Below, one piece after another: positions 8,147-27,332 of a stretch of DNA of 42,393 bases. The position numbers and the translations under genes were made by a program. This stretch comes from Candidatus Fervidifonticultor quintus. Its GTDB lineage: Bacteria > Sysuimicrobiota > Sysuimicrobiia > Sysuimicrobiales > Humicultoraceae. The stretch spans positions 1-42,393 of the forward strand of contig JAVKIJ010000018.1 of assembly GCA_031459535.1 (NCBI GenBank). Direction: 5' to 3'. Below the pieces are notes generated by a model, which had not been told where the DNA came from, ran no database searches, and saw only the letters and a list, made by a program, of their open reading frames with translations. Position 1 is the first letter of the stretch; each line of letters begins with the position of its first letter.

Positions 8147-10138
8147 TCAGCCGCCCCAGCAGGGCGACACGGTGACCTTCGCCCGAATCGGCAAGCTAGC
8201 CGTACTCGGGGCTAACTCCCGGAGCGGCCGCCGCTCCTCCACCGCGGCCTCGAGCAGCCCGCGGAGCCGCTCCACCCACGCCCCAGGACAGTCGACCAGC
8301 ACCGAGTCATGGACCTCGTTCACAATCGTCGGGACCTCCGGCCAGTCAGGCAGCTCGCCACGCTCGGCCCGCCGGGCCTCCTCGAGCAGCCGCGCGTGCC
8401 ACAGCCCCAGGCCCCAGCCCGCCTCGGCCAGGATCCGCTCCTCCAGGTCGATCAGGATCGCCGCCATCACATCCGCGGCCAGGGATTGGACCGGGTAGTT
8501 GATGGCCTGGTTCTCCACGTGCTTGCCGGTCCCCACCAGCCGACGGACACGCCCCGTGACCGAGACGACCCGCCCGAGCCGCTCCCGCTCGGCGGCCATC
8601 AGGCGCATGTAGCGCCGGAGCCGCGGGAAGGCCTCGAGGTAGGCGCGGTGCAAGCGCACGGTCTCGCGCTCGTGCGCCTCATAGGGATCGGCCAGCCGGA
8701 GCCCACGGGCCCAGAGCTGCTCGGCCATATGCTCGGGGCCCATGTTGTAGTGCACGCCGAGGATCACCCCCTTGACGTTCCGGTACTGTGGGTCATCCTC
8801 CGTGAGCTCCCGGCCGAGGAGCTGGCGGGCGACCTCGATGTAGCCGCCGCCGTCCGCGTAGACGCGCATGAGCTCCTCGTCCCCAGCCAGCCAGGCGACG
8901 ATCACCGCCTCCAGGCGGCGGAGGTCGGCTTCGACGATCTGCCCGCCAGGCCACCGCGAGACCACCAGGCCCCGGACCTGGCGGGGCCAGTTCTGGCTGT
9001 TCGGGGCGGCCGCAGAGCGCCGGCCAGTCCGGGCCCCGAGCGCGCGGAAGTGGAACTGCAACCAGAGCCGGCCGTCCGGGAGCGGGCGGAGATGCCGCTC
9101 GAGGCCAGCCGCGTAGGTTGAGTGCAGCTTCGCCGCCTGAGACCAGTCCAGGAGCGCGTCGATCACCTCTACTGCGGCGGGCTCCGCACTCTCCCGCAGG
9201 CGGCGGAGGGCGTCCCGCGTCACCTGGGGCTCGCCGCTCGCCGTGTAGCCGACCGGGACCAGCCCCAGCCGACCGAAGAGCAGATCCCGGACCTGCCGGC
9301 CGCGCGTAGGCGTGAAGTCGCTCGGGCCACCGGAGCGGACGGAAAGCTCGACCAGCCGCCGCTGAAGCCCTTCCACCCGGGCCGCGGTCTCGGCACGCAG
9401 CGCCTCGAAGGCCTTCCGGCTCACGATCACTCCGGCCAGCGTCGCCCGGTGGAGGACCATCGCGACCCGCTGCGTGTACTCGACCAGTCGGCGAGAGACC
9501 CGACGGGCCAGGAGACGACCAAGCTTCCAGGTGATCCAGGCATCCCACCGGCAGCGACGCTCGAGCTCCTCACGCGACCAGGTCCGTACGTAGCGAGCAC
9601 GGGTCTGAGCCTTCCAGGCCGGAACCGGGTCAGGCAGGAGCGAGGCCGCGACGCTCTCCAGATCGTACTTCGGCAGCCGCTCCTCGGCCATTCTTGCGAC
9701 GAGCATCACGTCGAGGATACCACGACCGGAGACGTAGCTGTCAAGCGGCGGGAGCCAGCCGTGCGCGATGAGCTGGTCGAGATCGCCGGGGATGTTGTAG
9801 CCGAGGAGGAGGGGGGTGGTCTCGGTCAGCCGGGCGAAGGTCTCACGGTCGACAACCGCGGCCTGCTCCCGAGCGACCGCAACAGCCAGGAGCTCCTGGC
9901 CGTCCCACTCGGTGTCCACCGCGAGGGCCGAGCCTGGGGAGGGGACGCCCTCCGGGCAGTCCAGGACCCGCCCCCCGTCCGCAAGCTCACGGGCCAGACG
10001 GAGATCCCGGATCACCAGCTCCCGGTAGAGGCTTCCGTCCCCCGCCCCACCGGCTCTGAGGACGGCCGCAGGGTGGAGGGTAGGGAGGACCAACTGGGCT
10101 CGGCCAAGCGGCTCGGCCTTCCGGCCTCGGGTAGCCAC
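8147..10138 (-). CDS. polA: Family A DNA polymerase with 3'-5' exonuclease; N-terminus is the C-terminal fragment of a family-4 UDG domain
   Basis: Exo motifs AVDTE, GYNIPGD; TGRRSAAAPNSQNWP; motif A EADLRRLE; motif B RNVKGVILGVHY; NYPVQSLAAD; motif C NEVHDS; N-terminal VLPTLHPAAVLR. Confidence 0.93.
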   Translation of the reverse strand: MATRGRKAEPLGRAQLVLPTLHPAAVLRAGGAGDGSLYRELVIRDLRLARELADGGRVLDCPEGVPSPGSALAVDTEWDGQELLAVAVAREQAAVVDRETFARLTETTPLLLGYNIPGDLDQLIAHGWLPPLDSYVSGRGILDVMLVARMAEERLPKYDLESVAASLLPDPVPAWKAQTRARYVRTWSREELERRCRWDAWITWKLGRLLARRVSRRLVEYTQRVAMVLHRATLAGVIVSRKAFEALRAETAARVEGLQRRLVELSVRSGGPSDFTPTRGRQVRDLLFGRLGLVPVGYTASGEPQVTRDALRRLRESAEPAAVEVIDALLDWSQAAKLHSTYAAGLERHLRPLPDGRLWLQFHFRALGARTGRRSAAAPNSQNWPRQVRGLVVSRWPGGQIVEADLRRLEAVIVAWLAGDEELMRVYADGGGYIEVARQLLGRELTEDDPQYRNVKGVILGVHYNMGPEHMAEQLWARGLRLADPYEAHERETVRLHRAYLEAFPRLRRYMRLMAAERERLGRVVSVTGRVRRLVGTGKHVENQAINYPVQSLAADVMAAILIDLEERILAEAGWGLGLWHARLLEEARRAERGELPDWPEVPTIVNEVHDSVLVDCPGAWVERLRGLLEAAVEERRPLRELAPSTASLPIRAKVTVSPCWGG

Positions 10139-11139: not shown

Positions 11140-11958
11140 ATGGACCAACCTGTATGCGGCAAGTGTGGGTCGGAGCTCCTGTTAGACGCAGACTCTCCTG
11201 CGGCTCGCAGGAACCAGCCACGTCTTTGGCGTTGGTACTGCTGGAAGTGTGGGTGGGATACCTACACGGCCGTGCAGCTTGAGCGGTGGCACTGCTGGAA
11301 GTGCGGGTGGGATACCGACAGGGGGGCCAGCAAGGAGGTAGGCCAGGGTGAGGAGTCTCGCTGCAGCGATCATGAGTTGGGCGTTCGTCGCGGTCGTCGC
11401 AGACAACGAAAGCGCGCCGCAGTACCACACCGCGCCGACACGCGAGGCGTGCGAGGAGGCGCGACGGCTTCTCGAGGAAGCCACGCAGCCGGCCCGCGCC
11501 GCGTACGACTTCCCCTACGGGCAGGTCTACACGTCGGCGTGCTACCCGACGCGGGAGTAGGCCATGCGCGTCTACATCGCGGGAGTCTACGAGGACCGCA
11601 ACGAGTTGCGAAGGGAGCTCGAGGAGGCGGTGCGGCTGCTCGGGCTGCACGGACGGCTCGAGATCGTCAGCCGCTGGCTCCACCGCGACGGGGAACCGCC
11701 GCCGGAGGCGTGGATCGACCGCGAGTTCGTCGACCTCGACGCACGGGAGCATCGGATCGCCGTAGAGGACGTCCAGGACATCCAGAGCGCGGACGTGCTG
11801 GTGCTCGACACGCGAAGCCGAGCGCTGCGGGGCGGACGCGAGGTCGAGTACGGCTTGGCGCTCGCGCACAAGCTCCCCGTCGTTCGGGTCGGTCCGGCTC
11901 GGAACATCTTTCACGGGCTGGCCTCCTACGCCTGCGAGGACCTCATCGGGGCGCTTGA
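11140..11958 (+). CDS. Zinc-ribbon protein with duplicated RW[YH]CWKCGWDT motif (only the first ~70 codons look like a real domain)
   Basis: CGKC plus two CWKC; the rest of the frame is low-complexity and overlaps two better ORFs. Confidence 0.5.
   Translation: MDQPVCGKCGSELLLDADSPAARRNQPRLWRWYCWKCGWDTYTAVQLERWHCWKCGWDTDRGASKEVGQGEESRCSDHELGVRRGRRRQRKRAAVPHRADTRGVRGGATASRGSHAAGPRRVRLPLRAGLHVGVLPDAGVGHARLHRGSLRGPQRVAKGARGGGAAARAARTARDRQPLAPPRRGTAAGGVDRPRVRRPRRTGASDRRRGRPGHPERGRAGARHAKPSAAGRTRGRVRLGARAQAPRRSGRSGSEHLSRAGLLRLRGPHRGA
11348..11560 (+). CDS. Small, possibly exported protein
   Basis: AGGAGG RBS; hydrophobic N-terminus; TREACEEAR...SAC two-Cys pattern. Confidence 0.55.
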   Translation: MRSLAAAIMSWAFVAVVADNESAPQYHTAPTREACEEARRLLEEATQPARAAYDFPYGQVYTSACYPTRE

Positions 11959-11983
11959 GTGGATAAGCCAGCGTCTACCGTGA
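11564..11983 (+). CDS. Nucleoside 2-deoxyribosyltransferase-like / nucleotide N-glycosidase
   Basis: MRVYIAG, EDVQDIQSADVLVL, GGREVEYGLALA, NIFH. Confidence 0.8.
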   Translation: MRVYIAGVYEDRNELRRELEEAVRLLGLHGRLEIVSRWLHRDGEPPPEAWIDREFVDLDAREHRIAVEDVQDIQSADVLVLDTRSRALRGGREVEYGLALAHKLPVVRVGPARNIFHGLASYACEDLIGALEWISQRLP

Positions 11984-12453
11984 GGCAGCGTGATCCTATC
12001 ACGGGCGGCGAGAAGGATGTCAAGCTGGCCCGCTACGATCTCCTGCCCGACAGTGTCACGACGCTCCTCACCGCGGGGTTCAGCGATCTCTGGGCGTCGC
12101 TGGACGTGTTTTGGAACCATGGTGGTGGGCGCCCGGAGCTGGTACGGGTGGGGTTAATCCTGGCCTTCGCGCTGGGGCCTGGGTGGCCGACGCGACTGGC
12201 CGAGGTCTTCGGCTGGGGCGCGGGGAAGTACGCCCCGCGGAACTGGGAGCGCGGGTACCCGTGGAGCTGGGCCTACGCCGCGCTCCGACGGCATATCGCC
12301 GCCTGGCTGGCGGGAGAACCCGACGACCCGGAGAGCGGGCTGCCGCACCTGGCGCACGCGCTCTGGCACGTCGTGGTCCTCATGCACTTCCTGGGTCGCT
12401 ACCGGGAGGGGGATGACCGGCCGCAACCGAACCTCACGACGGCGCCGTCGTAG
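11980..12453 (+). CDS. dATP/dGTP diphosphohydrolase domain protein (DUF5664-like)
   Basis: TGGEKDVKLARYDLLP, GAGKYAPRNWERG, AALRRH, DPESGLPHLAHA; GTGA overlap at 11980 (alternative start 11959). Confidence 0.85.
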   Translation: MRQRDPITGGEKDVKLARYDLLPDSVTTLLTAGFSDLWASLDVFWNHGGGRPELVRVGLILAFALGPGWPTRLAEVFGWGAGKYAPRNWERGYPWSWAYAALRRHIAAWLAGEPDDPESGLPHLAHALWHVVVLMHFLGRYREGDDRPQPNLTTAPS

Positions 12454-12676
12454 CATCCTCGCCCAGCTCCGGCGGGCCTTTCGCCACCAGCAGACCGACC
12501 CCGCGCCTGCGCGGTTATGGATCGCCGCCTCCGATGAGCACTTCTCTACCCCGCCGGCCCACCAGCACCACGACGTGCTGCCCCCGGTCCAGGACGGCGG
12601 TCCGCTCGCCCCGAACCTCATCGTGTGTAGCGGCCAGGCCCACCGCCTGGCCCTCGACCTCAAGGACGACACGTGA
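12413..12676 (+). CDS. Hypothetical protein
   Basis: ORF in the operon; stop overlaps the next GTG start. Confidence 0.5.
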   Translation: MTGRNRTSRRRRRSILAQLRRAFRHQQTDPAPARLWIAASDEHFSTPPAHQHHDVLPPVQDGGPLAPNLIVCSGQAHRLALDLKDDT

Positions 12677-12960
12677 GGATCCGCCCCTTCCGGTTGCGTA
12701 GGCTCTATATCCTGCCTGGCGTCCTGGTCTACGTGCGGGTGGTCCCGCGGGAAGACCTCGAGGGCGACAGCGGGTGGTGGGAGTACGACGACACGGCCTC
12801 GGCGGGCGTGATCTCCATTGCCCGGGACCTCTCGCTGGCCGAGCGACGCTACGTCCTGCTGCACGAGCTCCAACACGCCCTCGTGGACATCCTCGACCAG
12901 GCTATTCTCCAGAACGTGTGCCGGCCTATTGTCGAGGTCCGACGGCGACGGCGGCGGTAG
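12673..12960 (+). CDS. Minimal HExxH zincin-like protein (ImmA/IrrE-like)
   Basis: GVISIARDLSLAERRYVLLHELQH. Confidence 0.7.
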   Translation: MRIRPFRLRRLYILPGVLVYVRVVPREDLEGDSGWWEYDDTASAGVISIARDLSLAERRYVLLHELQHALVDILDQAILQNVCRPIVEVRRRRRR

Positions 12961-13141
12961 AGAGACCAACCAGCAAGCAGTCCCGCAGCATGAGTACGAC
13001 CTTGGTGTTACGAGGGACCTCAGGCGGTGGTGGTGTGGCCTCTAGGACGCCGTGACCGTGTAAATAGACGCGCCACCGGGTGCTGCCGGACTCAAGCCGG
13101 ATGAGGAGGTGGATGTAGCGTCGCGGTCCATCGTAGCTCAC
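12926..13141 (-). CDS. H-H-C micro-paralogue 1
   Basis: HLLIRL...RVYLHGHG...VVLMLRDC; GTGA-coupled to the upstream gene. Confidence 0.75.
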   Translation of the reverse strand: MSYDGPRRYIHLLIRLESGSTRWRVYLHGHGVLEATPPPPEVPRNTKVVLMLRDCLLVGLSTAAVAVGPRQ

Positions 13142-13323
13142 TGTGTACAGTCCCCCAGCGTGAGCATGACCCTGGCGTCGCTGGGGACCCGTGGCGGCGA
13201 TGTAGCCTCGAGGCAGAAGTCGTTCTCTAAGCTGCCGTTACAGTGTAACCAGACGCACCACCAGTCGTGACTGGACAAGACCGTGATGAGGAGGTGGTGG
13301 CGTGGCTGTCCGTAGTAGCTCAT
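13138..13323 (-). CDS. H-H-C micro-paralogue 2
   Basis: HLLITV...CVWLHCNG...VMLTLGDC; ATGA overlap. Confidence 0.75.
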   Translation of the reverse strand: MSYYGQPRHHLLITVLSSHDWWCVWLHCNGSLENDFCLEATSPPRVPSDARVMLTLGDCTQ

Positions 13324-13487
13324 AGCGTACAACCATCCTCCAGTGTCAGCGTGATCTCCGCGTGGTCGAGGATCCCCGGTGGTGGCGGGGCCCACTGGCT
13401 CGGCTCGACGCGGCCGTTGCGGTGAAGCCAAAGACGCCACCAGCCCACGTCGGACACGATGTAGACGTCCAGGTGCTGCCCCTTCAC
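13320..13487 (-). CDS. H-H-C micro-paralogue 3
   Basis: HLDVYIV...RLWLHRNG...ITLTLEDGC; GTGA overlap. Confidence 0.75.
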   Translation of the reverse strand: MKGQHLDVYIVSDVGWWRLWLHRNGRVEPSQWAPPPPGILDHAEITLTLEDGCTL

Positions 13488-13714
13488 GATCGACGCTCTT
13501 TGCACCGACAGACCCGTAACGTCAGGTGGATTTCTGCGTTGTCGAGGAGCTGTGGTGGCGCCTGCCACCTGGTTCCTACACCACCGCCCAGCGGGCCGCC
13601 GGAGTGGAGCCAGAGGAAGCTCCGGCGACCGTTGTGGTAGATGGTCGCGAAGAGGTAGCTCTCCACGTGCGGCCCGGGTGGCGGCTCGATCTCAACGGTC
13701 GTGGGCGGCTTCAT
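13484..13714 (-). CDS. H-H-C micro-paralogue 4 (first His replaced by Tyr)
   Basis: YLFATIY...FLWLHSGG...IHLTLRVC; ATGA overlap. Confidence 0.7.
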   Translation of the reverse strand: MKPPTTVEIEPPPGPHVESYLFATIYHNGRRSFLWLHSGGPLGGGVGTRWQAPPQLLDNAEIHLTLRVCRCKERRS

Positions 13715-13866
13715 CGGCTGTGGGCCCGTCGACAGGCTTCCAGGAAGCACGTGACGACCGCGTCTGGCGGGATGACCCGTTGCCGCGACGGCCAGATGAA
13801 ACTCGGGCCGACACATAGCACACCCACCCACCACCCGTCGACCTCTATGACCAGATGTGGTGTCAC
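13711..13866 (-). CDS. H-H-C micro-paralogue 5 (not in ORF track)
   Basis: VTPHLVIEVDGWWVGVLCVGPSFIWPSRQRVIPPDAVVTCFLEACRRAHSR; GTGA overlap. Confidence 0.7.
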   Translation of the reverse strand: MTPHLVIEVDGWWVGVLCVGPSFIWPSRQRVIPPDAVVTCFLEACRRAHSR

Positions 13867-14033
13867 CGCGCCAACCTCCGGTCGAACGCGCAGCTCTCTA
13901 GCGCGACGATCACAGCCCCACCCGCGTTGAGCTTCTCGAGGTTGGTCCAGACGCTACTGTCCCGGTGGAGCAGGACGTAGCCATCGTCCGACATGATATA
14001 GAGGTGCTGCGGCTCTTGAGATACGCCCGTCAT
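13863..14033 (-). CDS. H-H-C micro-paralogue 6
   Basis: HLYIM...VLLHRD...VIVALESC; ATGA overlap. Confidence 0.75.
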   Translation of the reverse strand: MTGVSQEPQHLYIMSDDGYVLLHRDSSVWTNLEKLNAGGAVIVALESCAFDRRLAR

Positions 14034-14215
14034 GGGCTGCGCTTCAGGTAGCACGGCCCCAAGAGGCACTCGTCGACGTAGACGAGGAAGGTCGCGTCAT
14101 GCAGGTCCGTCGGGCGCGGCCGCGTACATTCGATCATGGCGGTCGCGTGGAGCGCCGCGTAGACCTCTGTGGCGCGGCCCGAGTGGCTCCGTTTTATGAT
14201 GAGGTGTGTGCTCAC
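14030..14215 (-). CDS. H-H-C micro-paralogue 7
   Basis: HLIIK...AALHAT...FLVYVDEC; GTGA overlap. Confidence 0.75.
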   Translation of the reverse strand: MSTHLIIKRSHSGRATEVYAALHATAMIECTRPRPTDLHDATFLVYVDECLLGPCYLKRSP

Positions 14216-14457
14216 TTCTGGCAAGGATGCCATAGGATCACCCTCGTAGCCCCCGACGCGATCCTGTCACGTGGGGGCAGGCCGAGCAGGCACCGCTCCA
14301 GGTAGATGTCGACGCGCGTGTCCTCGCACACGTGCGCAAGGGTGGACCGGCCGATCTCCCACCGGCTCTCGGCCCCGTGCGCCACGCGGTGGATCGTCAC
14401 ACAGCCGTGGCCGTCGATGATCATGGAGAGATGGTTCCGTCCCTGTTGACTCGGCAT
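14212..14457 (-). CDS. H-H-C micro-paralogue 8
   Basis: HLSMII...VTIHRV...VDIYLERC. Confidence 0.7.
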   Translation of the reverse strand: MPSQQGRNHLSMIIDGHGCVTIHRVAHGAESRWEIGRSTLAHVCEDTRVDIYLERCLLGLPPRDRIASGATRVILWHPCQK

Positions 14458-14663
14458 GGTCCCTCGCAAGACACGATGACGCTGTAGCCGGGTTGTATGC
14501 GTCGGTGGGCAATGAGCGGCGCCTGAACGTGCGCGTGCGTGTGCAGCGCGACGCACAAGTAGAAGCCGTCTGCCTGGACGATCAGGTGAAGGTGTTTGGG
14601 CATAGATACGGTGACTCTGGAGCCTGGTCGGATGTGGCGGTGAAGGCGCTGGGCTTTGGTCAT
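14421..14663 (-). CDS. H-H-C micro-paralogue 9
   Basis: HLHLIV...VALHTH...VIVSCEGPC; ATGA overlap; N-terminal RHIRPGSRVTVS echoes its own RRIQPGYSVIVS. Confidence 0.7.
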   Translation of the reverse strand: MTKAQRLHRHIRPGSRVTVSMPKHLHLIVQADGFYLCVALHTHAHVQAPLIAHRRIQPGYSVIVSCEGPCRVNRDGTISP

Positions 14664-14806
14664 AGGGTGCATGTCCCGAGGATCACGTTGATGCGCATGC
14701 CCTTGTAGATCCTGGTGACCGCCGGCGGCCAGCCAAGACGCCCACCGATGTGGAGCGAGAAGGTGTACCCCGCAACGATCCCGAAGTAGATATGTTTGTG
14801 CCTCAT
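14660..14806 (-). CDS. H-H-C micro-paralogue 10 (not in ORF track)
   Basis: MRHKHIYFGIVAGYTFSLHIGGRLGWPPAVTRIYKGMRINVILGTCTL. Confidence 0.75.
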   Translation of the reverse strand: MRHKHIYFGIVAGYTFSLHIGGRLGWPPAVTRIYKGMRINVILGTCTL

Positions 14807-14854
14807 GGCTTAGGGGTGTAGGTGCAAGCCCCGAGGTGTACGACGAGGCGTATC

Positions 14855-15004
14855 CTAGGCGACAAGCAGTTTCCCGTCGTCGGTCGCCAGCACCACGAGC
14901 ACGTGCCAGTCGGCCCAGACAACCAGCCCGCCGGGCACCAGTTTCGGTTCTATGACCGCGCCCCGTCGAAGTGGCGTGCGCACGTTCCCCCACACTCGGC
15001 TCAT
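14855..15004 (-). CDS. Small hypothetical protein within the array (not in ORF track)
   Basis: MSRVWGNVRTPLRRGAVIEPKLVPGGLVVWADWHVLVVLATDDGKLLVA; ATGA overlap; lacks the family signature. Confidence 0.5.
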   Translation of the reverse strand: MSRVWGNVRTPLRRGAVIEPKLVPGGLVVWADWHVLVVLATDDGKLLVA

Positions 15005-15165
15005 AGCCTGCGGCGAGGGTTCAGCCTCACGGCGATCACGTCGCCCTCTAGGACCCGGCCGTTGGTGACGGTGATGACGGCGTCCGAGTTAAGCCAGACC
15101 ACACTGGCGCGGTACTCCGCCCGCTCGATCCAGAAGAATAGGTGCTGCTTCAGGGCTCTAGACAC
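15001..15165 (-). CDS. H-H-C micro-paralogue 11, degenerate (not in ORF track)
   Basis: VSRALKQHLFFWIERAEYRASVVWLNSDAVITVTNGRVLEGDVIAVRLNPRRRL. Confidence 0.65.
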   Translation of the reverse strand: MSRALKQHLFFWIERAEYRASVVWLNSDAVITVTNGRVLEGDVIAVRLNPRRRL

Positions 15166-15311
15166 GTGTACAGGTAGATCACAACCGCTGAGTTCTGGGC
15201 TGGATCTGCCGTGACGTGCATACCGACCCGCGCGTTAGCGTGGAGCACCAGGGCGTCCCCCCGCCTGTCTGGATCGACTGCGATGTAGAGGTGCTGGTTG
15301 TACTTCTTCAT
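15150..15311 (-). CDS. H-H-C micro-paralogue 12 (not in ORF track)
   Basis: MKKYNQHLYIAVDPDRRGDALVLHANARVGMHVTADPAQNSAVVIYLYTCLEP; GGAGG RBS. Confidence 0.75.
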   Translation of the reverse strand: MKKYNQHLYIAVDPDRRGDALVLHANARVGMHVTADPAQNSAVVIYLYTCLEP

Positions 15312-15334
15312 CCCCTCCCTCCAAATATGTCACT

Positions 15335-15469
15335 CTACCTCCCGCCAGTTATGTAAATGCGGATCTCGGCTCGTCGCCGCAGCCTGTAGGCCTTGCGGAC
15401 GGTCCCGTCCGACTCCAAGACCGCGAAGAACCGGTCGGCGATAAAGGCCAGGCACATCGGTGCACTCAT
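15335..15469 (-). CDS. Array subfamily B copy 1 (not in ORF track)
   Basis: MSAPMCLAFIADRFFAVLESDGTVRKAYRLRRRAEIRIYITGGR; ATGA overlap. Confidence 0.7.
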   Translation of the reverse strand: MSAPMCLAFIADRFFAVLESDGTVRKAYRLRRRAEIRIYITGGR

Positions 15470-15618
15470 TTCGGTGCGATCCCTCCAATCAGGTAGACGC
15501 GGATTGTGGCTAGTCGCCGCGGCCTGTAGGCCTTACGGACGACCCCGTCAGCGTACAGGCTTGCGAAGAACCGGCCGGCTGTAAAGTCCAAGGCCGGCAG
15601 TACGTTTATCCCACTCAC
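15466..15618 (-). CDS. Array subfamily B copy 2 (not in ORF track)
   Basis: VSGINVLPALDFTAGRFFASLYADGVVRKAYRPRRLATIRVYLIGGIAPK. Confidence 0.7.
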   Translation of the reverse strand: MSGINVLPALDFTAGRFFASLYADGVVRKAYRPRRLATIRVYLIGGIAPK

Positions 15619-15742
15619 CGTCGGTCAGGTAGACGTGGACCACGGCCCGTCGCCGTGGCTGGTAGTACTTGACGACGACCCCGTCAGCGTGCAGGCGCAC
15701 GGTAAAACCGCCTGCGACAAAGCCCAGGGCAGGCAGGCTCAT
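15548..15742 (-). CDS. Array subfamily B copy 3
   Basis: MSLPALGFVAGGFTVRLHADGVVVKYYQPRRRAVVHVYLTDG...; ATG overlaps the stop of the UDG fragment. Confidence 0.7.
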   Translation of the reverse strand: MSLPALGFVAGGFTVRLHADGVVVKYYQPRRRAVVHVYLTDGEWDKRTAGLGLYSRPVLRKPVR

Positions 15743-16182
15743 TCTAGTCTCAGCGCACGCCCGCGGGCACGGAGGATGTGGACGTCCCCCGCACCGACCA
15801 GGGCCTTGAGAGCCGTCCCGCCCAGCGCGACCACGACCTTGGGCTGGAGCGTGCGAATGCACTCCAGCAGGAGTCCCCGGCAGCAGTGGACCTCGTGCAT
15901 GGTCGGCGTGCGGTTCTGCGGGGCCGCGCACTGAACCGCGTTGGCCAGCGCCACGTCGGTTTCTGTAAACCCGGCTCGTCGTAGAAGCTCCCGAAGCAGT
16001 TGACCGGCCGGGCCCGTGAACGGACGCCCGCTCCTGCGGTCTTCGTCCTGGCCCGGCCGCTCCCCGACAACGAGCGCGAGCCCGGTCCACCCGTCGGGGA
16101 TCTCCGGCCCCATGAACGGGCGCTGGCAACGCCGCCAGGCCCCGCATTCCTGGCACTCGGGGCGGTGTTCGGCTCCCCGCAT
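15739..16182 (-). CDS. Family-4 uracil-DNA glycosylase, N-terminal fragment (lacks the HPA motif)
   Basis: CQEC...C Fe-S ligands, VVGERPGQDEDRRSGRPFTGPAGQLL, NAVQC, PKVVVALGGTA; ends at RARGRALRLE*. Confidence 0.88.
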   Translation of the reverse strand: MRGAEHRPECQECGAWRRCQRPFMGPEIPDGWTGLALVVGERPGQDEDRRSGRPFTGPAGQLLRELLRRAGFTETDVALANAVQCAAPQNRTPTMHEVHCCRGLLLECIRTLQPKVVVALGGTALKALVGAGDVHILRARGRALRLE

Positions 16183-16186
16183 GGGC

Positions 16187-16339
16187 TTATGATACCTCAG
16201 CCCGCTTCGGGGAGTAGAGCACCACCGCGGCGCGGTGGCCTCGGTGGTTCTCCAGCAGCTTGAGTCCAACGGCCAGGCTAGCCGCCCGGGCGTCCAGGCG
16301 GCACGTCCTACAGACGAGACGGACGCGCTTCTTCAGCAT
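16187..16339 (-). CDS. Small CxxC...HxxH zinc-binding protein (not in ORF track)
   Basis: MLKKRVRLVCRTCRLDARAASLAVGLKLLENHRGHRAAVVLYSPKRAEVS; AGGAGG RBS. Confidence 0.65.
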   Translation of the reverse strand: MLKKRVRLVCRTCRLDARAASLAVGLKLLENHRGHRAAVVLYSPKRAEVS

Positions 16340-16349
16340 CGCACCCTCC

Positions 16350-16529
16350 TCACAACTCGCACCCGCCGAGACTCACGGCGACCGTGGCCGCGTCGGGTGG
16401 AACCTCGAACGCTGCGACGATGACACGGCGCTCCGGGGTCACGTGGAGTGTGGCGTCAATGTGGCCGAGCTGGTAGAGCGTGCCTATGCGCTTGTACCAT
16501 TCGAAGACCACGTGGCCTCCGGCGGTCAT
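16350..16529 (-). CDS. H-H-C micro-paralogue 13
   Basis: HVVFEW...ATLHVT...VAVSLGGC; ATGA overlap and GGAGGTG RBS. Confidence 0.7.
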   Translation of the reverse strand: MTAGGHVVFEWYKRIGTLYQLGHIDATLHVTPERRVIVAAFEVPPDAATVAVSLGGCEL

Positions 16530-16708
16530 CGTATACACCTCCGGCCCTGTATGATCAGTTGAATGAGGCGCACGTCGCCCGGTAGAAAGGCTGGAGCCGA
16601 CACCACGAGCCGGCGCGGGGACGGGCTGTGAAGGTGCACCTCGACACCCGGCCTCTCGGTCACGAAGCCTAGGTGCATCGGATGCATCGTCTGTGCCTTC
16701 GGTTTCAC
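16526..16708 (-). CDS. H-H-C micro-paralogue 14
   Basis: HLGFV...VHLHSP...IQLIIQGRRC. Confidence 0.7.
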   Translation of the reverse strand: MKPKAQTMHPMHLGFVTERPGVEVHLHSPSPRRLVVSAPAFLPGDVRLIQLIIQGRRCIR

Positions 16709-16723
16709 GGTTCTGTCACCTCC

Positions 16724-16912
16724 TCACACCCACCAGTTAGTGCACGGCGCCACTATGACCTCGACGAGCGCGTCGTCGGCCGGCAGCAGCGGCGGGCTGG
16801 CCGCAGTGATCTTCAGGTGCAGGCCAGGCGCGGTGTGGAGCGTCGGGTCCACCAGCCACGCGAGGGCGCTGAACACCAGGTGCTTAGCTGACAGACGATC
16901 AACGCCCGCCAT
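16724..16912 (-). CDS. H-H-C micro-paralogue 15
   Basis: HLVFS...PTLHTA...VEVIVAPC. Confidence 0.7.
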   Translation of the reverse strand: MAGVDRLSAKHLVFSALAWLVDPTLHTAPGLHLKITAASPPLLPADDALVEVIVAPCTNWWV

Positions 16913-17066
16913 AGGTATGGCACCATCCGATGTAGACAACGATAGGTTGAGGCGCGTCCCGCCCGGCATTCCTGCTCCACACCCACACCCTGTCGTGTGT
17001 GTAGTGGAGTGACGCAAACAGCCCTGGGTGCTCGAAGCAGAGGTGTCGGTAGCGTGTCCTACTCAT
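16899..17066 (-). CDS. H-H-C micro-paralogue 16 (not in ORF track)
   Basis: MSRTRYRHLCFEHPGLFASLHYTHDRVWVWSRNAGRDAPQPIVVYIGWCHTYGGR. Confidence 0.75.
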   Translation of the reverse strand: MSRTRYRHLCFEHPGLFASLHYTHDRVWVWSRNAGRDAPQPIVVYIGWCHTYGGR

Positions 17067-17069
17067 GAG

Positions 17070-17222
17070 TCACCAGGCGCACCGCCCGACCACCACGGCG
17101 ATGCGCGCGCCGCGGGCGAATCGGCGCGCGGACTTCTCCACATGCAGCCCGCCCCCGGGGCAGTGGAGCGACACCCCCCGGGTTCCCTGGCTTGCGTCAA
17201 CGAAGTAGATATGGAGGCTCAT
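17070..17222 (-). CDS. H-H-C micro-paralogue 17
   Basis: HIYFV...VSLHCP...IAVVVGRC; ATGA overlap. Confidence 0.75.
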   Translation of the reverse strand: MSLHIYFVDASQGTRGVSLHCPGGGLHVEKSARRFARGARIAVVVGRCAW

Positions 17223-17413
17223 ACCTCGACGAGGCCTGCCACGCACGGTTCCACGTAGACGCGGATCTCCTGCTGTGGCCGCCACCGGTGAACGCCGTTC
17301 CACACGCGCAGGCGCTCAGGGAAGCAGTGGAGCGACGCGCTTTGCACGTCGTCCTCGAAGTAGAGATGCCGGTTACGCCAGCGTGAGTTCGACCGCGACG
17401 ACCTGGCCACCAC
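17219..17413 (-). CDS. H-H-C micro-paralogue 18 (start uncertain)
   Basis: HLYFE...ASLHCF...IRVYVEPC. Confidence 0.75.
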   Translation of the reverse strand: MVARSSRSNSRWRNRHLYFEDDVQSASLHCFPERLRVWNGVHRWRPQQEIRVYVEPCVAGLVEV

Positions 17414-17744
17414 GTTCCCACCCTCCCGCGAGGAACCGGCCCTGGTCTGTCCGACCCAGCCAGCCCTCCACGGCTCCGTGGACCTGGAGCCCGCTGACGA
17501 ACAGCGGGCAGTTCTCCGCCGCGTGGAAGAGGTGGGCGTTGGCGTGGTTCAGCTCTGCCGACGCCCACAACCCGTGTCGGAGCGGGACCCGGAACTCCCC
17601 CGGCCGCGTCTTCCAGGTCTTCGTGGCCCCGGCTCGCCGCCAGGCCTCGATCTGGTGCTGGGCCCCGCCGCGCGGGCCGACGTCCACGCGGCACCGCCCG
17701 TAGTGGAACGTGTGGGCGCGGAGCGCCTCCTCCAGCGTCACCAT
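17373..17744 (-). CDS. Hypothetical phage protein
   Basis: WRRAGATKTWKTRPGEFRVPLRHGL motif; RBS supplied by the 42-bp repeat. Confidence 0.7.
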   Translation of the reverse strand: MVTLEEALRAHTFHYGRCRVDVGPRGGAQHQIEAWRRAGATKTWKTRPGEFRVPLRHGLWASAELNHANAHLFHAAENCPLFVSGLQVHGAVEGWLGRTDQGRFLAGGWERGGQVVAVELTLA

Positions 17745-17830
17745 CGCCTACACCTCCGGCTGATAGGAGTCGGGTGTGTAGGTCATCGTCTACACCTCCG
17801 GCTGATCTGAGTCGGGTGTGTAGATCATCG
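17742..17830 (-). repeat. Two tandem copies of a 42-bp unit, each encoding a 12-aa mini-ORF
   Basis: 17742-17783 and 17784-17825; minus-strand ORFs MIYTPDSDQPEV* (17790-17828) and MTYTPDSYQPEV* (17748-17786). Confidence 0.9.
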
Positions 17831-18713: not shown

Positions 18714-18908
18714 CGGAGCCCCCGCTCTGAGGACCGTCAGCGCCGCACGCAGCTCACGCCGGGCGTCGCGCAGCCTCACAGAGACGTCGCTCAGTGGACC
18801 GCGCGGTAAACGGGCTTGTTGCCGCATCTGCTCGACTTCCTCGCTGATCCGCTGCGCCAGCTCAGCGACGTCCGCTGTGGTGTTGATAAGCTCCTCAACA
18901 AGATTCAT
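18708..18908 (-). CDS. Small coiled-coil protein
   Basis: Heptad-like VAELAQRISEEVEQMRQQ; GGAGGTG RBS. Confidence 0.65.
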   Translation of the reverse strand: MNLVEELINTTADVAELAQRISEEVEQMRQQARLPRGPLSDVSVRLRDARRELRAALTVLRAGAPR

Positions 18909-19488
18909 CCAGCCACCTCCCTAGCAGCCGCGCCCGGACATCCACCGGGACCGCGGCCAGGTCTTTGTAGGGGTACACGGTCACCAGCCGGGCCAGCGGC
19001 AGCGCGTGGAGCACGGACCGCGCCAGCTCGGCGGTGTCCGTGTCCACGACCACTACGACCCGGCCCACCGCCCGCGCGCGCAGCGCGGTCAGCGCCTCCC
19101 GGTTGACGGCCGTCCCCATGGTCGCGATGCCTAGGGCGCCGGCCATCGCCGCAGCCAGCGCGTCCAGCGGCCCTTCCACCACGCACGTTAGCCGGATCGG
19201 CGTGGTGGGGGCGACTACGACCAGGGCCGGTCCGCGCTCGGTGGCCGCGCTGACGTACCGAGGCTCCTGGCCGGCCAACGCCCGGGCCTGCCAGTAGCCC
19301 GGGACCGTGGTCGGGATCACGAGCCGCAGCCCGTCCCGGCACTGGGCCGCGTACCAGCCGTGATCCCGGGCCAGCTCCGGATCGAGACCGCGCTTGCGGA
19401 GGTAGGCTCGGGCCTCCTCCCAAGCGGCCGGGTCGCGCCGCGGGGTCGCACGACGACGCTCAATGGGCGGGTAAGGCCGCACCATCAC
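18895..19488 (-). CDS. DnaG-like primase (Toprim), without N-terminal Zn finger
   Basis: AYLRKRGL, RLVIP, YWQAR, PRY, VVEGPLDALA, ATMGT, VVVVDTD, YKDL. Confidence 0.8.
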   Translation of the reverse strand: MMVRPYPPIERRRATPRRDPAAWEEARAYLRKRGLDPELARDHGWYAAQCRDGLRLVIPTTVPGYWQARALAGQEPRYVSAATERGPALVVVAPTTPIRLTCVVEGPLDALAAAMAGALGIATMGTAVNREALTALRARAVGRVVVVVDTDTAELARSVLHALPLARLVTVYPYKDLAAVPVDVRARLLGRWLDESC

Positions 19489-20627
19489 GACCGATACACG
19501 AACCGAAGGTTCTTCTTCTGGAGATCTGTGTAGATCTCCTGAGCCTTTTGGCGGAGACGCTCCAACGTCTCCGCGTTGAACTCTGGAGCGTCAACGAAGT
19601 CCTGTAGCTCGGCCCCCAGCATCAGCACGGCTAGGACCGCCAACGTCTTCTCGTTCGTGGGGTCCTCCCGCATCATGGTGTAGAGGCGCTCCGGCAGCGC
19701 GGCACGGAGCGCTTCATCACGCTGCCAGAGCAGGCGAGGCAGCAGGTCCAGTAACTGCCCAGCCGAGGCAACGCGGAGCGCCGCCTCCCAAACGTCACTC
19801 GTGGTGACCGAGCTCTGCAGCCGCTTCACCACCTCGGCGACCACGTTGTCCGGGAAGAGAGCCCGGACTAACACCTCTTGGTGCCACTTCGAGAAGACGA
19901 GGTCCGGCCGGCGCTGGATCCACCGGCCGAGGTAGGCGAAGGTGCGCTTCGAGACCACCCGGGCCGGCCGCCGAGCCGGGCGGCTCCCGACGAGCCCCTC
20001 TGCCAACCACTTGAGCGTGGGGAGAGACTCCTCGACGTCCGCCTGCTCCCGCCCTGGCTCCGGGTAGTTGAACCAGAGCATGCGGTTGACGACGAAGTCC
20101 GGCAGGGGCCGGACAAACTCGTTGGCTAGGGCGAGCATTCGGACGCCCGGTTGGAGCCGGTGCCCGTGACATTCCCTTGACGTACACAGGGAGGCGATGG
20201 GTGTGATCACCTCCCCCTCGGCCTTGTCGAACTCATCCAAGACCCACAAGACCGGATCGTCTTGGTTGTCCGACCAAGGCCAGCCCGGCGGGCGCGAGTA
20301 GGAGGTAACGAGCGCTTCACGGCGGCGGCGGTCCTGTTGCCGCCAGGGCGGGACCAGGACCCCGCCCAGCTCCCACCAGGGCAGGGATTCGAGGATCGTC
20401 ACCTGGAGCCGCCAGCCCAGCTCGTGAGCGAGCTCCTCGGCCAGGTGGTTCTTGCCCACCCCGACATCCCCCAGGAGCAGGGGGATGCCAAGATCCTGGC
20501 CCGGCCCGCCGTCGATCAAGGCTGCCCGGACCAGGTCCTTGATCACCTGACGGTAGGGCGGCCGGGGCTCTTCCGGCGCCGCGGCCGCCTCGGTGGGCTT
20601 CTCGCTCTCAGCTTTCTTCTTACCCAT
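19485..20627 (-). CDS. MoxR-like AAA+ ATPase
   Basis: Walker A GDVGVGKN, Walker B VLDEFDKA, LALAN, NRM arginine finger; adjacent to a VWA gene. Confidence 0.85.
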   Translation of the reverse strand: MGKKKAESEKPTEAAAAPEEPRPPYRQVIKDLVRAALIDGGPGQDLGIPLLLGDVGVGKNHLAEELAHELGWRLQVTILESLPWWELGGVLVPPWRQQDRRRREALVTSYSRPPGWPWSDNQDDPVLWVLDEFDKAEGEVITPIASLCTSRECHGHRLQPGVRMLALANEFVRPLPDFVVNRMLWFNYPEPGREQADVEESLPTLKWLAEGLVGSRPARRPARVVSKRTFAYLGRWIQRRPDLVFSKWHQEVLVRALFPDNVVAEVVKRLQSSVTTSDVWEAALRVASAGQLLDLLPRLLWQRDEALRAALPERLYTMMREDPTNEKTLAVLAVLMLGAELQDFVDAPEFNAETLERLRQKAQEIYTDLQKKNLRFVYRS

Positions 20628-21819
20628 CTTCCCCCTCCTTCTCGTTCTTCGCCGCCTTCCAGACAACCACCCCGGCGCTGGGCGGCGGCGTCTGCCCGTC
20701 CGGGTCGACAATCACCCACCAGTCCCCGCCCGGGTGCTCCTTAGGCCACCCGTCACCTGGGTAGCCATCGGTCACCCACACAGCGGGGACGCCCGCGCGC
20801 CGCTGCGTCGCCGGCGGCAGGAAGCACGTCCCGCCGCCGCCGATTCGTGCGATGACCTCCCGGACGGTCGAGACGTCCGAGCGGTCGACCACGACCGTGT
20901 CGGTGCTGAAGACCAGCACCCGCACACGGCGCAGCGGCTTTTCGTCCAGGGCCGCCACGGCCGCGGCGACCGCCTCGTCCGTGATCGACCCGGAGACGTC
21001 CAGGATCAGGTCGAGATCGAGGCTCTTTCTCTCGGCCCCGATCCCAAAGCAGTCGGGCAGCGCGGCGTGTTCTCGCCAGACGACCGGACGCGGCTCCCAC
21101 GCTGCGTGCCCGCGCAGCAGCCGCACCAGCACCCACACCCAGGGCGGCGGCGGGGCCTGGTCGACACCGCGGCCCCAGCCTGGATCGACCCAGGCTTGCT
21201 GTGTGAAGTGCTCGTGGGGGTAATCCCCGGCGGTGCTGGCCCGGGCGATGGCTTCGGCGAGCGCAATCACCCCGCCGGGCGAGATGTCGGGCTGCGCCCC
21301 GCAGGGGTGCGCCCCCGCGTCGCACTGGCCGAGTCCGCCACACCGCTGTGCGGCGTCGTCGTCGTTCTGCCCCGCGCCGGCACCGCAGAGTTGCGGCGGG
21401 CGGTTTCGCAGGGCGTGGTAAGCGGGGACCACGCCCATCGGCGGGAGCCCGAGCCGCTCGAAGGTGACCGACCCGGGGACGAGCTCGGGCAGGTGTGGGA
21501 GGTGGTGGTGGATCACCGCGTCGCTGGCCAGGTTGAGTGTCAGCGGATCCACCGGGCCGTCCCGGCGGAGCTTCCGGGCCAGCAGCGGGTAGCCCATGAG
21601 CCAGTGGTTGACCTCATGCTCAAGTATCCCCGCCCGGACGCGGTCGTCCCGGGCGTCCCACGACGAGCGGGGGATCCAGATCGTCTTGCTGTCGAAGTCG
21701 GTCGCGGCGGCGAAGCCGTCGACCGGCTCCGGTGTGTACTTGATCTCGAAGCCTTCTAGCGCCCGCCGGACGTACTCCGGCAAGGCGCTGGTGGGGACGA
21801 ACGGCCTTTCGACACTCAC
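20620..21819 (-). CDS. HExxH metallopeptidase plus VWA domain protein (DUF2201-like)
   Basis: AAATD, ILEHEVNH, NLASDAVI; MIDAS motif ILDVSGSI, GGGGT, VWVTDG. Confidence 0.85.
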   Translation of the reverse strand: MSVERPFVPTSALPEYVRRALEGFEIKYTPEPVDGFAAATDFDSKTIWIPRSSWDARDDRVRAGILEHEVNHWLMGYPLLARKLRRDGPVDPLTLNLASDAVIHHHLPHLPELVPGSVTFERLGLPPMGVVPAYHALRNRPPQLCGAGAGQNDDDAAQRCGGLGQCDAGAHPCGAQPDISPGGVIALAEAIARASTAGDYPHEHFTQQAWVDPGWGRGVDQAPPPPWVWVLVRLLRGHAAWEPRPVVWREHAALPDCFGIGAERKSLDLDLILDVSGSITDEAVAAAVAALDEKPLRRVRVLVFSTDTVVVDRSDVSTVREVIARIGGGGTCFLPPATQRRAGVPAVWVTDGYPGDGWPKEHPGGDWWVIVDPDGQTPPPSAGVVVWKAAKNEKEGEDG

Positions 21820-21926
21820 AATCTCACCTCCTGGTGGGGACGAGGCAATCCTCCAGCAGGACTGCAACACGGTCGGCGGGGAGGACATTCACACGGAGCT
21901 AGTCTTTCTAGTAGGAGCGGTGGTTG

Positions 21927-22944: not shown

Positions 22945-23013
22945 TTGCTGAAACACGGGTTTCAGCGTGTTGCTGAAAGTGGGGTTTCAGCGAGTTGCTG
23001 AAACGCTGAAAGT
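22945..23013. repeat. 25-bp-period operator-like repeats GCTGAAA-N6-TTTCAGC
   Basis: TTGCTGAAA at 22945, 22970 and 22995; the first two are completed by TTTCAGC. Confidence 0.75.
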
Positions 23014-23271
23014 CCGGGCGTGCCACCCCAGGTACCGTGGTGTGGTCTGACCAGCAGACCAGCAGACCAGGAGAGAGGGACCGGGGGCCTGGGACACGGG
23101 GCCCCGGTTAGGTGACGGGCTGTGGCGCCGAACGACGCCGCAGGGGGGGACAAGAGGGGGGGTGACCTTCGCACCAACAGTACCAGCCGTACCAACCGTA
23201 CCAACCTCATCGACCGCACCAGACACGAGTCTGCTCCTATCCGGGCCTCACTACCGACCCGGGGGGGTCAC

Positions 23272-23300
23272 ATTATAGCCTAAAACGCTAATAAAATCAA
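23272..23300 (-). promoter_or_regulatory. Sigma70-type leftward promoter
   Basis: Minus strand TTGATT (23300-23295), 17-bp spacer, TATAAT (23277-23272) in an AT-rich patch. Confidence 0.7.
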
Positions 23301-23359
23301 CGACTTACACCCCGGGGGCTACGATGTCGGTTACACTTGGGGGTTACAACGTACAACAC

Positions 23360-23820: not shown

Positions 23821-24000
23821 CCTCCAAAAAGTCCTCTCTGAGAGCCTCTGGAGCGTTCGGCGCGTGGGTCTGCACGTAAAAGGCCTGTAATTTCGGCAAT
23901 TTACGGCAGTACCGGACGTCGTTGTCAAGTCTTTCGGATCTTGCAACCGCCTGATTTTGCTGAATTATACGCCAAAGAGCGTCTTCCAGACACCACCACG

Positions 24001-27198: not shown

Positions 27199-27332
27199 TC
27201 AAGTCGGTTGGTGGGGGGAAGTACGTCGTGGTCTCCGAGAAGACCGGGCGCCGGCTCAGCCGGCCCCTGAGCCGCCGTGGCGCCCAGCGACGCCTGCGCC
27301 AGATTGAGTACTTCAAGCACCGCGGGCGCTGA
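27195..27332 (+). CDS. Small basic phage protein (not in ORF track)
   Basis: VIKSVGGGKYVVVSEKTGRRLSRPLSRRGAQRRLRQIEYFKHRGR; resembles small head-module proteins ending RLRQIEYFKH. Confidence 0.7.
   Translation: MIKSVGGGKYVVVSEKTGRRLSRPLSRRGAQRRLRQIEYFKHRGR

Follow-up and report, generated by a model that had tools for sequence, protein, structure and literature searches.

Tandem array of small, deeply diverged genes with a His/His/Cys signature in a podovirus-like phage contig binned with a hot-spring bacterium

The stretch of DNA described here, called the window below, is the whole of contig JAVKIJ010000018.1 (positions 1-42,393; also contig C49) of the Candidatus Fervidifonticultor quintus assembly GCA_031459535.1. 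It is podovirus-like phage DNA of 42,393 nucleotides (nt) that was binned with a hot-spring metagenome-assembled genome (MAG). On its minus strand, between positions 12926 and 17413, lies a tandem array of 18 genes for proteins of 48-81 amino acids (aa), here named family A, together with three genes of a subfamily B (15335-15742). Family A is, with very little doubt, a real protein family. It is new, restricted to one phage lineage and expanding in tandem; within a very short time members are gained or lost and recombine. A repertoire of small metal-pinned proteins that bind host targets may explain the array; this reading is weighed below against five others.

The run of open reading frames (ORFs) from 17413 to 12926 is uninterrupted on the minus strand. 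Besides an embedded gene of 147 aa that resembles uracil-DNA glycosylase (UDG), it consists of small ORFs of 44-81 aa, where start codons beside the upstream stop were chosen for the ORF lengths. An initial annotation of the window had reported 18 minus-strand ORFs of about 48-81 aa, and all were found with the same lengths. The alignment gives one layout for the members: a His-Leu pair opens a hydrophobic strand, a Leu-His pair follows 12-20 residues later, and a Cys ends the last hydrophobic strand. By the profile alignment, 17 of 18 members keep the first His (13484-13714 has Tyr), 16 the second (Asn in 15001-15165, Leu in 13711-13866) and 17 the C-terminal Cys (missing in 15001-15165). All three residues are complete in 15 of the 18 members, the number given in the initial annotation. 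The array genes are listed below from the upstream end. Bits are leave-one-out profile scores, and the confidence of AlphaFold2 models is the predicted local distance difference test (pLDDT); SD stands for Shine-Dalgarno.

17219-17413, minus strand: family A, 64 aa, His/His/Cys complete; 21.5 bits; AlphaFold2 pLDDT 79.2; SD-like GGGAGG upstream
17070-17222, minus strand: family A, 50 aa, His/His/Cys complete; 25.0 bits; ATGA overlap with the upstream stop
16899-17066, minus strand: family A, 55 aa, His/His/Cys complete; 20.3 bits; weak match to phrog_24265 (E 0.0045; unknown function)
16724-16912, minus strand: family A, 62 aa, His/His/Cys complete; 19.2 bits
16526-16708, minus strand: family A, weak member, 60 aa, non-canonical C-terminus ..QGRRCIR; 5.3 bits, reached by 3 of 200 shuffles
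16350-16529, minus strand: family A, 59 aa, His/His/Cys complete; 13.3 bits; ATGA overlap; GGAGGTG upstream
16187-16339, minus strand: interspersed 50-aa ORF, non-member; no family match; good SD motif AGGAGG
15739-16182, minus strand: interspersed family-4 UDG-like gene, 147 aa; PF03167 at E 4.6e-23, profile positions 11-101 of 141
15548-15742, minus strand: subfamily B, 64 aa, keeps ..RLHADG.. and ends ..YLTDG plus tail; ATGA overlap with the UDG stop; DNA repeat D1
15466-15618, minus strand: subfamily B, 50 aa, lacks His/His/Cys, ends ..YLIGGIAPK
15335-15469, minus strand: subfamily B, 44 aa, ends ..YITGGR; ATGA overlap
15150-15311, minus strand: family A, 53 aa, His/His/Cys complete; 14.4 bits; strong SD motif (GGAGGGAGG)
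15001-15165, minus strand: family A, degenerate, 54 aa, second His replaced by Asn, no C-terminal Cys; 6.6 bits (shuffle maximum 6.4); full model E 3.2e-5
14855-15004, minus strand: interspersed 49-aa ORF, non-member; ATGA overlap
14660-14806, minus strand: family A, 48 aa (the shortest), His/His/Cys complete; 21.6 bits
14421-14663, minus strand: family A, 80 aa, N-terminal extension, His/His/Cys complete; 5.0 bits, reached by 4 of 200 shuffles
14212-14457, minus strand: family A, 81 aa, C-terminal tail, His/His/Cys complete (Ile-His replaces Leu-His); 16.6 bits
14030-14233, minus strand: family A, chimera, 67 aa, tail GPCYLKRSP; 6.8 bits, reached by 1 of 200 shuffles
13863-14033, minus strand: family A, 56 aa, His/His/Cys complete; 20.6 bits; ATGA overlap
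13711-13866, minus strand: family A, 51 aa, second His replaced (..VGVLC..); 13.0 bits; GTGA overlap; GGAGG upstream
13484-13714, minus strand: family A, 76 aa, first His replaced by Tyr; 18.7 bits; ATGA overlap
13320-13487, minus strand: family A, 55 aa, His/His/Cys complete; 41.1 bits; GTGA overlap
13138-13323, minus strand: family A, 61 aa, His/His/Cys complete; 35.6 bits; ATGA overlap; AlphaFold2 pLDDT 80.9
12926-13141, minus strand: family A, 71 aa, last array gene, His/His/Cys complete; 31.2 bits; GTGA overlap

Pairwise similarity between members is low. With phmmer, no more than 15 of the 306 ordered pairs reach E < 0.01, so that it is chiefly profiles that reveal the family. Hidden Markov models (HMMs) were built leaving out one member at a time, with 200 shuffles per member as control. 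Fourteen of the 18 omitted members score 13.0-41.1 bits, above the shuffle maximum of 9.7 bits, and the comparison with shuffled controls proposed in the initial annotation thus speaks for the alignment. The four weak members, which begin at 16526, 15001, 14421 and 14030, reach 5.0-6.8 bits, and the real score of three of them is reached by 1-4 of 200 shuffles. The E value of 9.9e-12 obtained for 14421-14663 in the full model comes from a model trained on 14421-14663 itself. Similarity falls with distance along the array (Spearman -0.29, permutation p about 0.001), mostly owing to the block 12926-13714; that neighbours resemble each other most had also been proposed.

The three genes of subfamily B are 49-59% identical to each other in protein and 65-77% in DNA. 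Neither the first His nor the Cys remains in them, and they end in Gly-Gly or Asp-Gly. An alignment of the two profiles with hhalign places them in the same register as family A, with a weak match (probability 50%, E 1.6e-4). They are probably derived from the main family, and the related three-gene subfamily of the initial annotation can be retained on this basis.

The codon positions carry a coding signal. The G+C content of the third position (GC3) is the highest of the three in 17 of 18 members, and that of the second (GC2) is the lowest in all 18. Pooled values for the first, second and third positions are 0.64/0.47/0.79 in the 18 members versus 0.75/0.50/0.87 in six replication genes; the signal is coding-like and less extreme than in the core genes. 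The GC3 frame plot shifts its frame gene by gene and matches the called ORFs. Synonymous codons at the conserved residues vary (His: 12 CAC, 5 CAT; Cys: 11 TGC, 6 TGT; Leu: four to five codons), which points to selection on the protein and not on the DNA. No member contains an internal stop or a frameshift within the unit.

Overlaps of 4 nt of the ATGA/GTGA type are present at 12 of the 24 junctions from 17744 to 12926 (13 if the ATG at 14424 is used). This is half of the junctions and not most of them, as had been stated. The remaining junctions have gaps of 3-48 nt or overlaps of 14-71 nt. As three of four TGA stops yield such an overlapping start by chance, the overlaps alone are weak evidence. 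The earlier conclusion that these are real genes is upheld by codon composition and profiles; the overlaps add little to it, as they are frequent by chance. Start codons lie beside upstream stops, and SD-like motifs precede several of the array genes. Terminator-like sites detected on the array strand within the array do not exceed a 5-pair stem in strength.

AlphaFold2 was run with the paralogue alignment on two distant members. The model of 13138-13323 (pLDDT 80.9) has strands at residues 9-16, 21-26, 32-35 and 51-58, and that of 17219-17413 (pLDDT 79.2) at residues 15-20, 25-30, 35-39 and 51-56. Both are predicted to form a single four-stranded antiparallel sheet of about 50 residues with a long loop before the last strand; small beta-rich proteins with a common fold had been expected, and the two models share their four strands. 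The four-residue turn between strands 1 and 2 would set the first His opposite the second (residue 10 with 27, and 16 with 29). From the strand limits, the Cys should lie after the last strand, at the end of the sheet where strand 1 begins.

Conservation follows the modelled strands. Pairwise identity by column is 0.89 and 0.69 for the His-Leu pair at the start of strand 1, which reads H-L-x-[IFVM], 0.78 and 0.78 for the Leu-His pair at strand 2's end, and 1.00 for the Cys just after strand 4. Hydrophobic residues alternate within strand 4, where identity is 0.37-0.42 at positions 52, 54 and 56 versus 0.05-0.11 at positions 53 and 55. The conserved positions are spread over residues 10-59 of the reference member. 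Most other columns are at 0.05-0.22, which agrees with the earlier remark that residues outside the signature are barely conserved and with the view of diversification on a fixed scaffold. One face of the sheet is conserved and hydrophobic and cannot be left exposed; the opposite face and the loops can vary freely. Net charge ranges from -3 to +7 and the isoelectric point (pI) from 5.3 to 11.6, with 11 of the 18 members positive, five negative and two neutral. A complex prediction with two copies of 13138-13323 and two Zn scored 0.02 against a mark of 0.42, which is evidence neither for nor against such a complex.

The family was searched for in protein, structure and nucleotide collections. 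Pfam-A gave no significant match for the 18 family A ORFs (best, and short of the cut-off, Toprim at E 0.051 for 15150-15311), and PHROGs v4 only the weak match of 16899-17066 to phrog_24265 listed above. NCBIfam 20.0 matched none of the 18 family A or three subfamily B ORFs, and subfamily B has no match in Pfam or PHROGs. The best E value of the family profile against PDB sequences was 0.62. With Foldseek, no hit at E <= 0.001 was obtained in PDB (best E 0.55) or in BFVD (best E 0.075). The latter hit, the 105-aa viral protein A0A1S5YCK5, is not significant; among the entries listed it alone is set off as a lead (probability 1.00, query template-modelling score 0.55, root-mean-square deviation (rmsd) 3.2 over 55 columns, 20% identity). 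In a set of 48,161 chains, VIA-align reached at best Z 3.9, where a Z under 8 may mean a mere common arrangement; Kelch blades and clamp-like subdomains rank highest. The best score in the ESM Atlas was 0.80 (recognition 1770), which is under the meaningful level. Structure matches that are weak or missing are no proof that the fold is new.

A profile search of 1.84 billion representative proteins returned 17, of which 16 are the phage's own proteins or close strain variants from Logan assemblies. The remaining one, P0016 (1577 aa), was rejected as an artefact; it is repetitive and has sub-threshold matches to seven unrelated Pfam families. A second profile search for homologous proteins gave ten matches, all of them the phage's own proteins or strain variants. 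In the six-frame translation of the MAG only the 18 training ORFs on the window's contig score, with none in the other 137 contigs and the next E value at 0.38. Among 94 genomes of the phylum the array occurs in two, namely the window's MAG (G000) and G047. Single matches in long open frames of G022 (E 0.0086) and G060 (E 0.0049, with an internal TGA) were taken as chance. No match to 12900-17800 was found by blastn in 50,697 phage records. A scan of JGI metagenomes with 13138-13323 gave one locus, L127, a chance Pro-rich match that is not a member. Full-text searches of the literature, which did not extend to supplementary files, turned up no description of such a family. The HMM search of protein sets suggested in the initial annotation has thus found, P0016 aside, only this phage and its variants. 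The claim of an undescribed family is borne out by the lack of a significant match in Pfam, PHROGs, NCBIfam, PDB and BFVD.

The same phage is present in contig G047:C10, which was binned with a MAG that belongs to the same order but to a different family. Outside three indel regions, the two contigs differ over about 23 kb by six bases and one 1-nt indel. Family matches number 19 in G047:C10 and 18 in the window, as came out of the copy-number comparison that had been recommended. The extra member is 65 aa long with His/His/Cys complete and lies between the counterparts of 13863-14033 and 14030-14233. In the window, 14030-14233 is a deletion chimera, consisting of the body of one copy and the last nine residues of the extra copy of G047:C10. 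A second recombinant, strain variant P0028, combines a body like that of 13138-13323 with the tail of 12926-13141. An in-frame deletion of 69 nt (16541-16609) shortens 16526-16708 to 37 aa in part of the population; it is on the main contig in two of four sequencing runs, and both forms occur in the other two. One member gained or lost and one chimera between near-identical genomes, together with the similarity of neighbours, also sustain the claim of tandem duplication.

Strain variants change other residues, loops included, and all 15 that were aligned keep the three signature residues. Variants P0015 and P0025 of 16724-16912 differ at about 10 of 62 residues and retain His/His/Cys. Variants P0006, P0018 and P0019 of 16526-16708 have the canonical ends ..VYVNTC or ..VYVHTC. 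The ratio of nonsynonymous to synonymous substitution rates (dN/dS; NG86) is 0.46-0.85 for the closest paralogue pairs, which is below one but high.

The window has 69% G+C; the MAG comprises 3.1 Mb in 138 contigs with 68.7% G+C. The array lies inside a leftward replication block, between the primase/AAA/VWA genes and a family A DNA polymerase gene (PolA), on the strand common to both. The genes assigned outside the array are the following.

27277-29001, plus strand: large terminase
29661-31385, plus strand: P22-like portal
34280-35254, plus strand: HK97-type major head protein
35720-36616, plus strand: SU10-type adaptor
Plus strand: scaffold gene, and a tail-fibre-like gene at the left end of the contig
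19485-21888, minus strand: VWA/AAA pair, replication block
18895-19488, minus strand: primase, replication block
8147-10138, minus strand: PolA, replication block
Minus strand: PD-(D/E)XK nuclease, DnaB-like helicase and RuvC-like gene, replication block
17373-17744, minus strand: 123-aa gene directly upstream of the array, non-member; relatives at 37-56% identity in eight IMG/VR contigs

The two ends of the contig do not overlap. G047:C10 runs 3,424 nt past the left end of the window and there encodes a 500-aa protein matching phrog_14065. With this extension of about 3.4 kb the phage genome has at least 45.8 kb, of which the window is a part, and the array of about 4.5 kb makes up about one tenth of the phage genome seen so far. 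As one phage contig was binned with MAGs of two families, binning leaves the host unfixed. The only CRISPR (clustered regularly interspaced short palindromic repeats) array detected in the MAG (G000:C106:60594-63727, at a contig end) consists of a 36-nt repeat in 43 copies with 42 spacers, each 35-38 nt long, none of which matches the phage contig. Four DNA runs of one study, labelled as hot springs metagenome, contain the array stretch and may be the source of the contig itself; no RNA run is listed among the runs that contain it. In GenBank phages (tblastn), identity to PolA is at most about 24%, with Gordonia phages as the best, so there is no close sequenced relative for a comparison of arrays. 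The terminase found 27 IMG/VR loci at identities of up to 31%.

The eight IMG/VR loci with relatives of 17373-17744 contain no family member. Downstream of the gene, seven of them have no comparable paralogue array, and only a small duplication is present in L005. A 42-nt direct repeat at 17739-17800 spans the ribosome-binding site and the start of 17373-17744. Contigs of two runs show a step-back joint of 42 nt there, and the copy number of this unit seems variable. G047:C10 also differs from the window by a 42-nt insertion at 18701 and about 93 extra nt at 21892.

The interspersed UDG-like gene (15739-16182) scores 97.8 bits with TIGR00758 (cut-off 125.3; profile positions 23-129 of 173). 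It lacks the C-terminal quarter of the domain, and its stop forms an overlap with the start of 15548-15742, the first gene of subfamily B. Upstream of the array, the overlapping pair at 19485-21888 (minus strand) encodes an AAA_5 (MoxR/CobS-like) ATPase and a VWA/DUF2201 protein. Elsewhere, such AAA_5 and VWA pairs serve as chaperones for metal insertion or remodelling; to connect them with the mini-proteins, whose metal binding is itself putative, would be pure speculation. A block of small plus-strand genes (11564-12960) is convergent with the array, and the 3' end of 12926-13141 overlaps its ORF 12673-12960. The block holds an ORF like nucleoside 2-deoxyribosyltransferase (weak match, E 2e-4), a domain of the dATP/dGTP pyrophosphohydrolase type (PF18909, E 4e-27) and an M78/IrrE-like peptidase ORF, the 3' end of which overlaps the last array gene. 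By sequence, the block hints at functions in the nucleotide pool or DNA modification; no PurZ-like gene was seen among 32 contig ORFs scanned. The best sigma-70-like promoter match of the region is at 23300-23272 (minus strand), followed by one ORF of 152 aa and then a strong terminator-like hairpin at 22260-22230 (minus strand; 13 pairs and a T run). The G+C content falls to 58% at 23001-24000, where the leftward gene block gives way to the rightward one.

The explanation preferred for the array, at somewhat less than even confidence, is a repertoire of metal-pinned, dispensable mini-binders directed against host targets. The two His residues would face each other over the first hairpin; the Cys, placed at their end of the sheet, would complete a metal site with them, probably for Zn. 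Such a site could pin a fold that may be too small for stability of its own at high temperature. The conserved hydrophobic face would be buried by dimerisation or by contact with a partner, while binding would fall to the variable face and to the long loop that joins strands 3 and 4. Members would be individually dispensable and made together in early to middle infection, each aimed at a different or variable host protein, be it a defence or a takeover target. Unequal recombination between neighbouring copies would renew the repertoire.

Viral precedents exist for parts of this picture. The host-takeover module of Bacillus phage SPO1 consists of about two dozen very small genes, mostly unrelated to each other, with early promoters of their own. 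The array is likewise a run of very small phage genes; it differs in that its genes are paralogues of one fold. The closest parallel to the repertoire reading, by analogy, may be the AcrID1 clusters. A few hot-spring rudiviruses carry AcrID1 homologues as clustered duplicates, with identity within the family down to 7.3% in the part of the source that treats them (PMC11065993). As described there, AcrID1 (SIRV1/2/3) shares with the array small accessory proteins of a hot-spring virus in the form of clustered, extremely diverged paralogues in one lineage. It differs in belonging to an archaeal virus, and not to a bacterial tailed phage, and in lying at genome termini under its own early promoters, whereas 18-19 co-oriented copies are found here inside replication genes. 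The His/His/Cys signature and the single-sheet model are features of the phage family that cannot be attributed to AcrID1 here. In poxviruses, which also have adjacent paralogous genes, the genomic accordion (K3L arrays) amplifies a small host-interaction gene in tandem by recombination, according to the portion of PMC9415595 concerned. Those arrays expand and collapse, and the copy number of the phage array differs between near-identical genomes. The accordion copies are described as near-identical, transient and homogenised, in contrast to the ancient copies of the phage array with about 20% identity and a scaffold that is kept. On that account the accordion is a dosage response and not a standing repertoire, and the type of virus and the domain of the host differ.

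Several points weigh against the repertoire of mini-binders. Zn sites usually have four ligands, and here three residues are conserved; the proximity of the Cys to the His pair is suggested by strand register. Metal binding by family members is putative, as are their function, expression and partners, and an anti-defence or host-takeover role is conjectural. A lone four-stranded sheet requires a surface to pack against, and no such partner was identified. The array lies amid replication genes and not at an obvious early end, and beside it no known anti-defence gene was found; the setting gives no hint of defence. The host is uncertain, given the MAGs of two families and the absence of a match among the 42 spacers, and all DNA evidence comes from samples of one study. 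The dN/dS of 0.46-0.85 and the GC3 of 0.79 versus 0.87 in core genes fit relaxed constraint equally well, as do the three members that lack one or more signature residues, the one decaying member and the easy loss of copies.

Relaxed constraint is the basis of the strongest rival, which is unlikely though less so than the others. In this explanation one or a few copies are functional, and the rest are drifting duplicates of a locus prone to recombination by slippage or unequal crossing-over, so that the array as such is not selected. The high dN/dS of the closest pairs, GC1 and GC3 below those of core genes, the three members without a complete signature, the non-canonical C-terminus of 16526-16708 with its 69-nt deletion in part of the population, and the loss of a member by deletion with no other change in the genome are all in its favour. 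Against it, 15 of 18 members keep the three residues and the hydrophobic pattern despite a near-random remainder, which calls for long-lasting purifying selection on many copies. No unit contains an internal stop or a frameshift, and a phage of at least 45.8 kb under packaging limits is expected to shed 4.5 kb of junk.

It is rather improbable that the members are small metal-stabilised nucleic-acid binders of the WRKY-GCM1 kind, acting on phage or host DNA or RNA in replication or transcription. The position among replication genes (primase, PolA), the UDG-like gene inside the array, a predicted four-stranded sheet with putative ligands at strand ends, and the positive net charge of 11 of 18 members would suit this role. 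WRKY-GCM1 domains, in the part of PMC1702500 that deals with them, have about 60 residues and a four-stranded sheet as core, with DNA contact by the first two strands. Their metal, Zn, is held by Cys and His at strand ends, so that a small sheet can be a stable metal-pinned module (PMC1702500). The same account gives WRKY four ligands, two Cys (end of strand 2 and start of strand 3) and two His (end of strand 4), with WRKYGQK in strand 1. The phage family has three conserved residues in the order His (start of strand 1), His (end of strand 2) and Cys (after strand 4), and no fourth was found. WRKY-GCM1 domains are, as presented there, DNA-binding modules of eukaryotes; the phage members have no match to WRKY, GCM or FLYWCH or to any other Pfam family, and no WRKY or GCM chain is among the VIA-align matches listed. 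The pI of 5.3-11.6, with five negative and two neutral members, and surface columns that are near random, with no conserved basic or polar surface, also speak against nucleic-acid binding, and this role leaves the need for 18 different versions unexplained.

Slightly less probable still is the hetero-oligomer considered in the initial annotation, in which members are subunits, for instance four-stranded blades of a propeller-like or stacked-sheet assembly, kept near equimolar by translational coupling. Start/stop overlaps join the genes, and the conserved hydrophobic face must pack against something. The top structural neighbours, all weak, include clamp-like subdomains and Kelch blades (Z 3.7-3.9), which are likewise four-stranded antiparallel sheets, of 40-50 residues. 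The Kelch matches (6hrl_B with Z 3.9 and rmsd 6.2 over 50 residues; 2vpj_A with Z 3.7 and rmsd 2.7 over 41) are at chance level (Z under 8). In contrast to Kelch repeats, the phage units are separate ORFs with their own start and stop and have no Kelch or propeller match in Pfam. A defined assembly would not easily tolerate 18 versus 19 copies, a chimera and a truncation in part of the population; the difference in copy number and the 69-nt deletion argue against a fixed composition, and in this form the earlier suggestion is disfavoured.

It is highly unlikely that the array is what frameshifts have left of a single long repeat-protein gene, or a set of untranslated ORFs. DNA of high G+C content yields many spurious ORFs, the units stand head to tail on one strand, and the coding status rests here on DNA. 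Every one of the 18 units holds the whole motif from strand 1 to Cys in one ORF. Each change of frame falls at a unit border, with a start codon beside the preceding stop, which argues against a broken repeat-protein gene. The GC3 signal tracks each called frame, conserved residues have differing synonymous codons, and strain variants alter amino acids and keep both His/His/Cys and open frames. Precursors of ribosomally synthesised and post-translationally modified peptides (RiPPs), with the Cys as the modified residue, can be all but dismissed: many tandem small genes and a Cys near the C-terminus in 17 of 18 members fit such precursors, but conservation in a beta-strand pattern over the full length, instead of a conserved leader and a variable core, and the lack of a radical SAM protein, lanthionine synthetase, cyclodehydratase or protease/transporter (Pfam) among the 32 larger ORFs of this contig, beyond which the phage genome extends, argue against them, and the models are predicted folded sheets.

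The protein family itself is new, whereas virus-encoded tandem families of small accessory proteins have precedents. The array is unusual in its size relative to the genome, in the depth of divergence on a fixed scaffold of three residues and in its visible, ongoing turnover. Small tailed phages rarely carry large paralogue families, and here about 4.5 kb is devoted to about 21 versions of one tiny protein. A more far-reaching form of the repertoire explanation, which is doubtful, is a self-renewing library on an unseen single-sheet scaffold, a phage counterpart of an immune repertoire in which each member neutralises a different variant of host defence or a different host protein. If true, one phage lineage could keep pace with a diverse host population in the spring, and no larger counter-defence arsenal made of paralogues would be known from a small tailed phage; the array would also offer a thermostable scaffold for binders, ready for use. 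If members are mostly drifting duplicates, the locus would be a clean case of gene birth, chimera formation and decay between near-identical genomes. If members bind host proteins, the array would show tandem duplication at work in building and renewing a phage's repertoire for counter-defence or takeover, as in poxviruses and archaeal rudiviruses, and it would provide a new family of inhibitors on a very small hot-spring scaffold, possibly metal-stabilised, with a naturally randomised surface.

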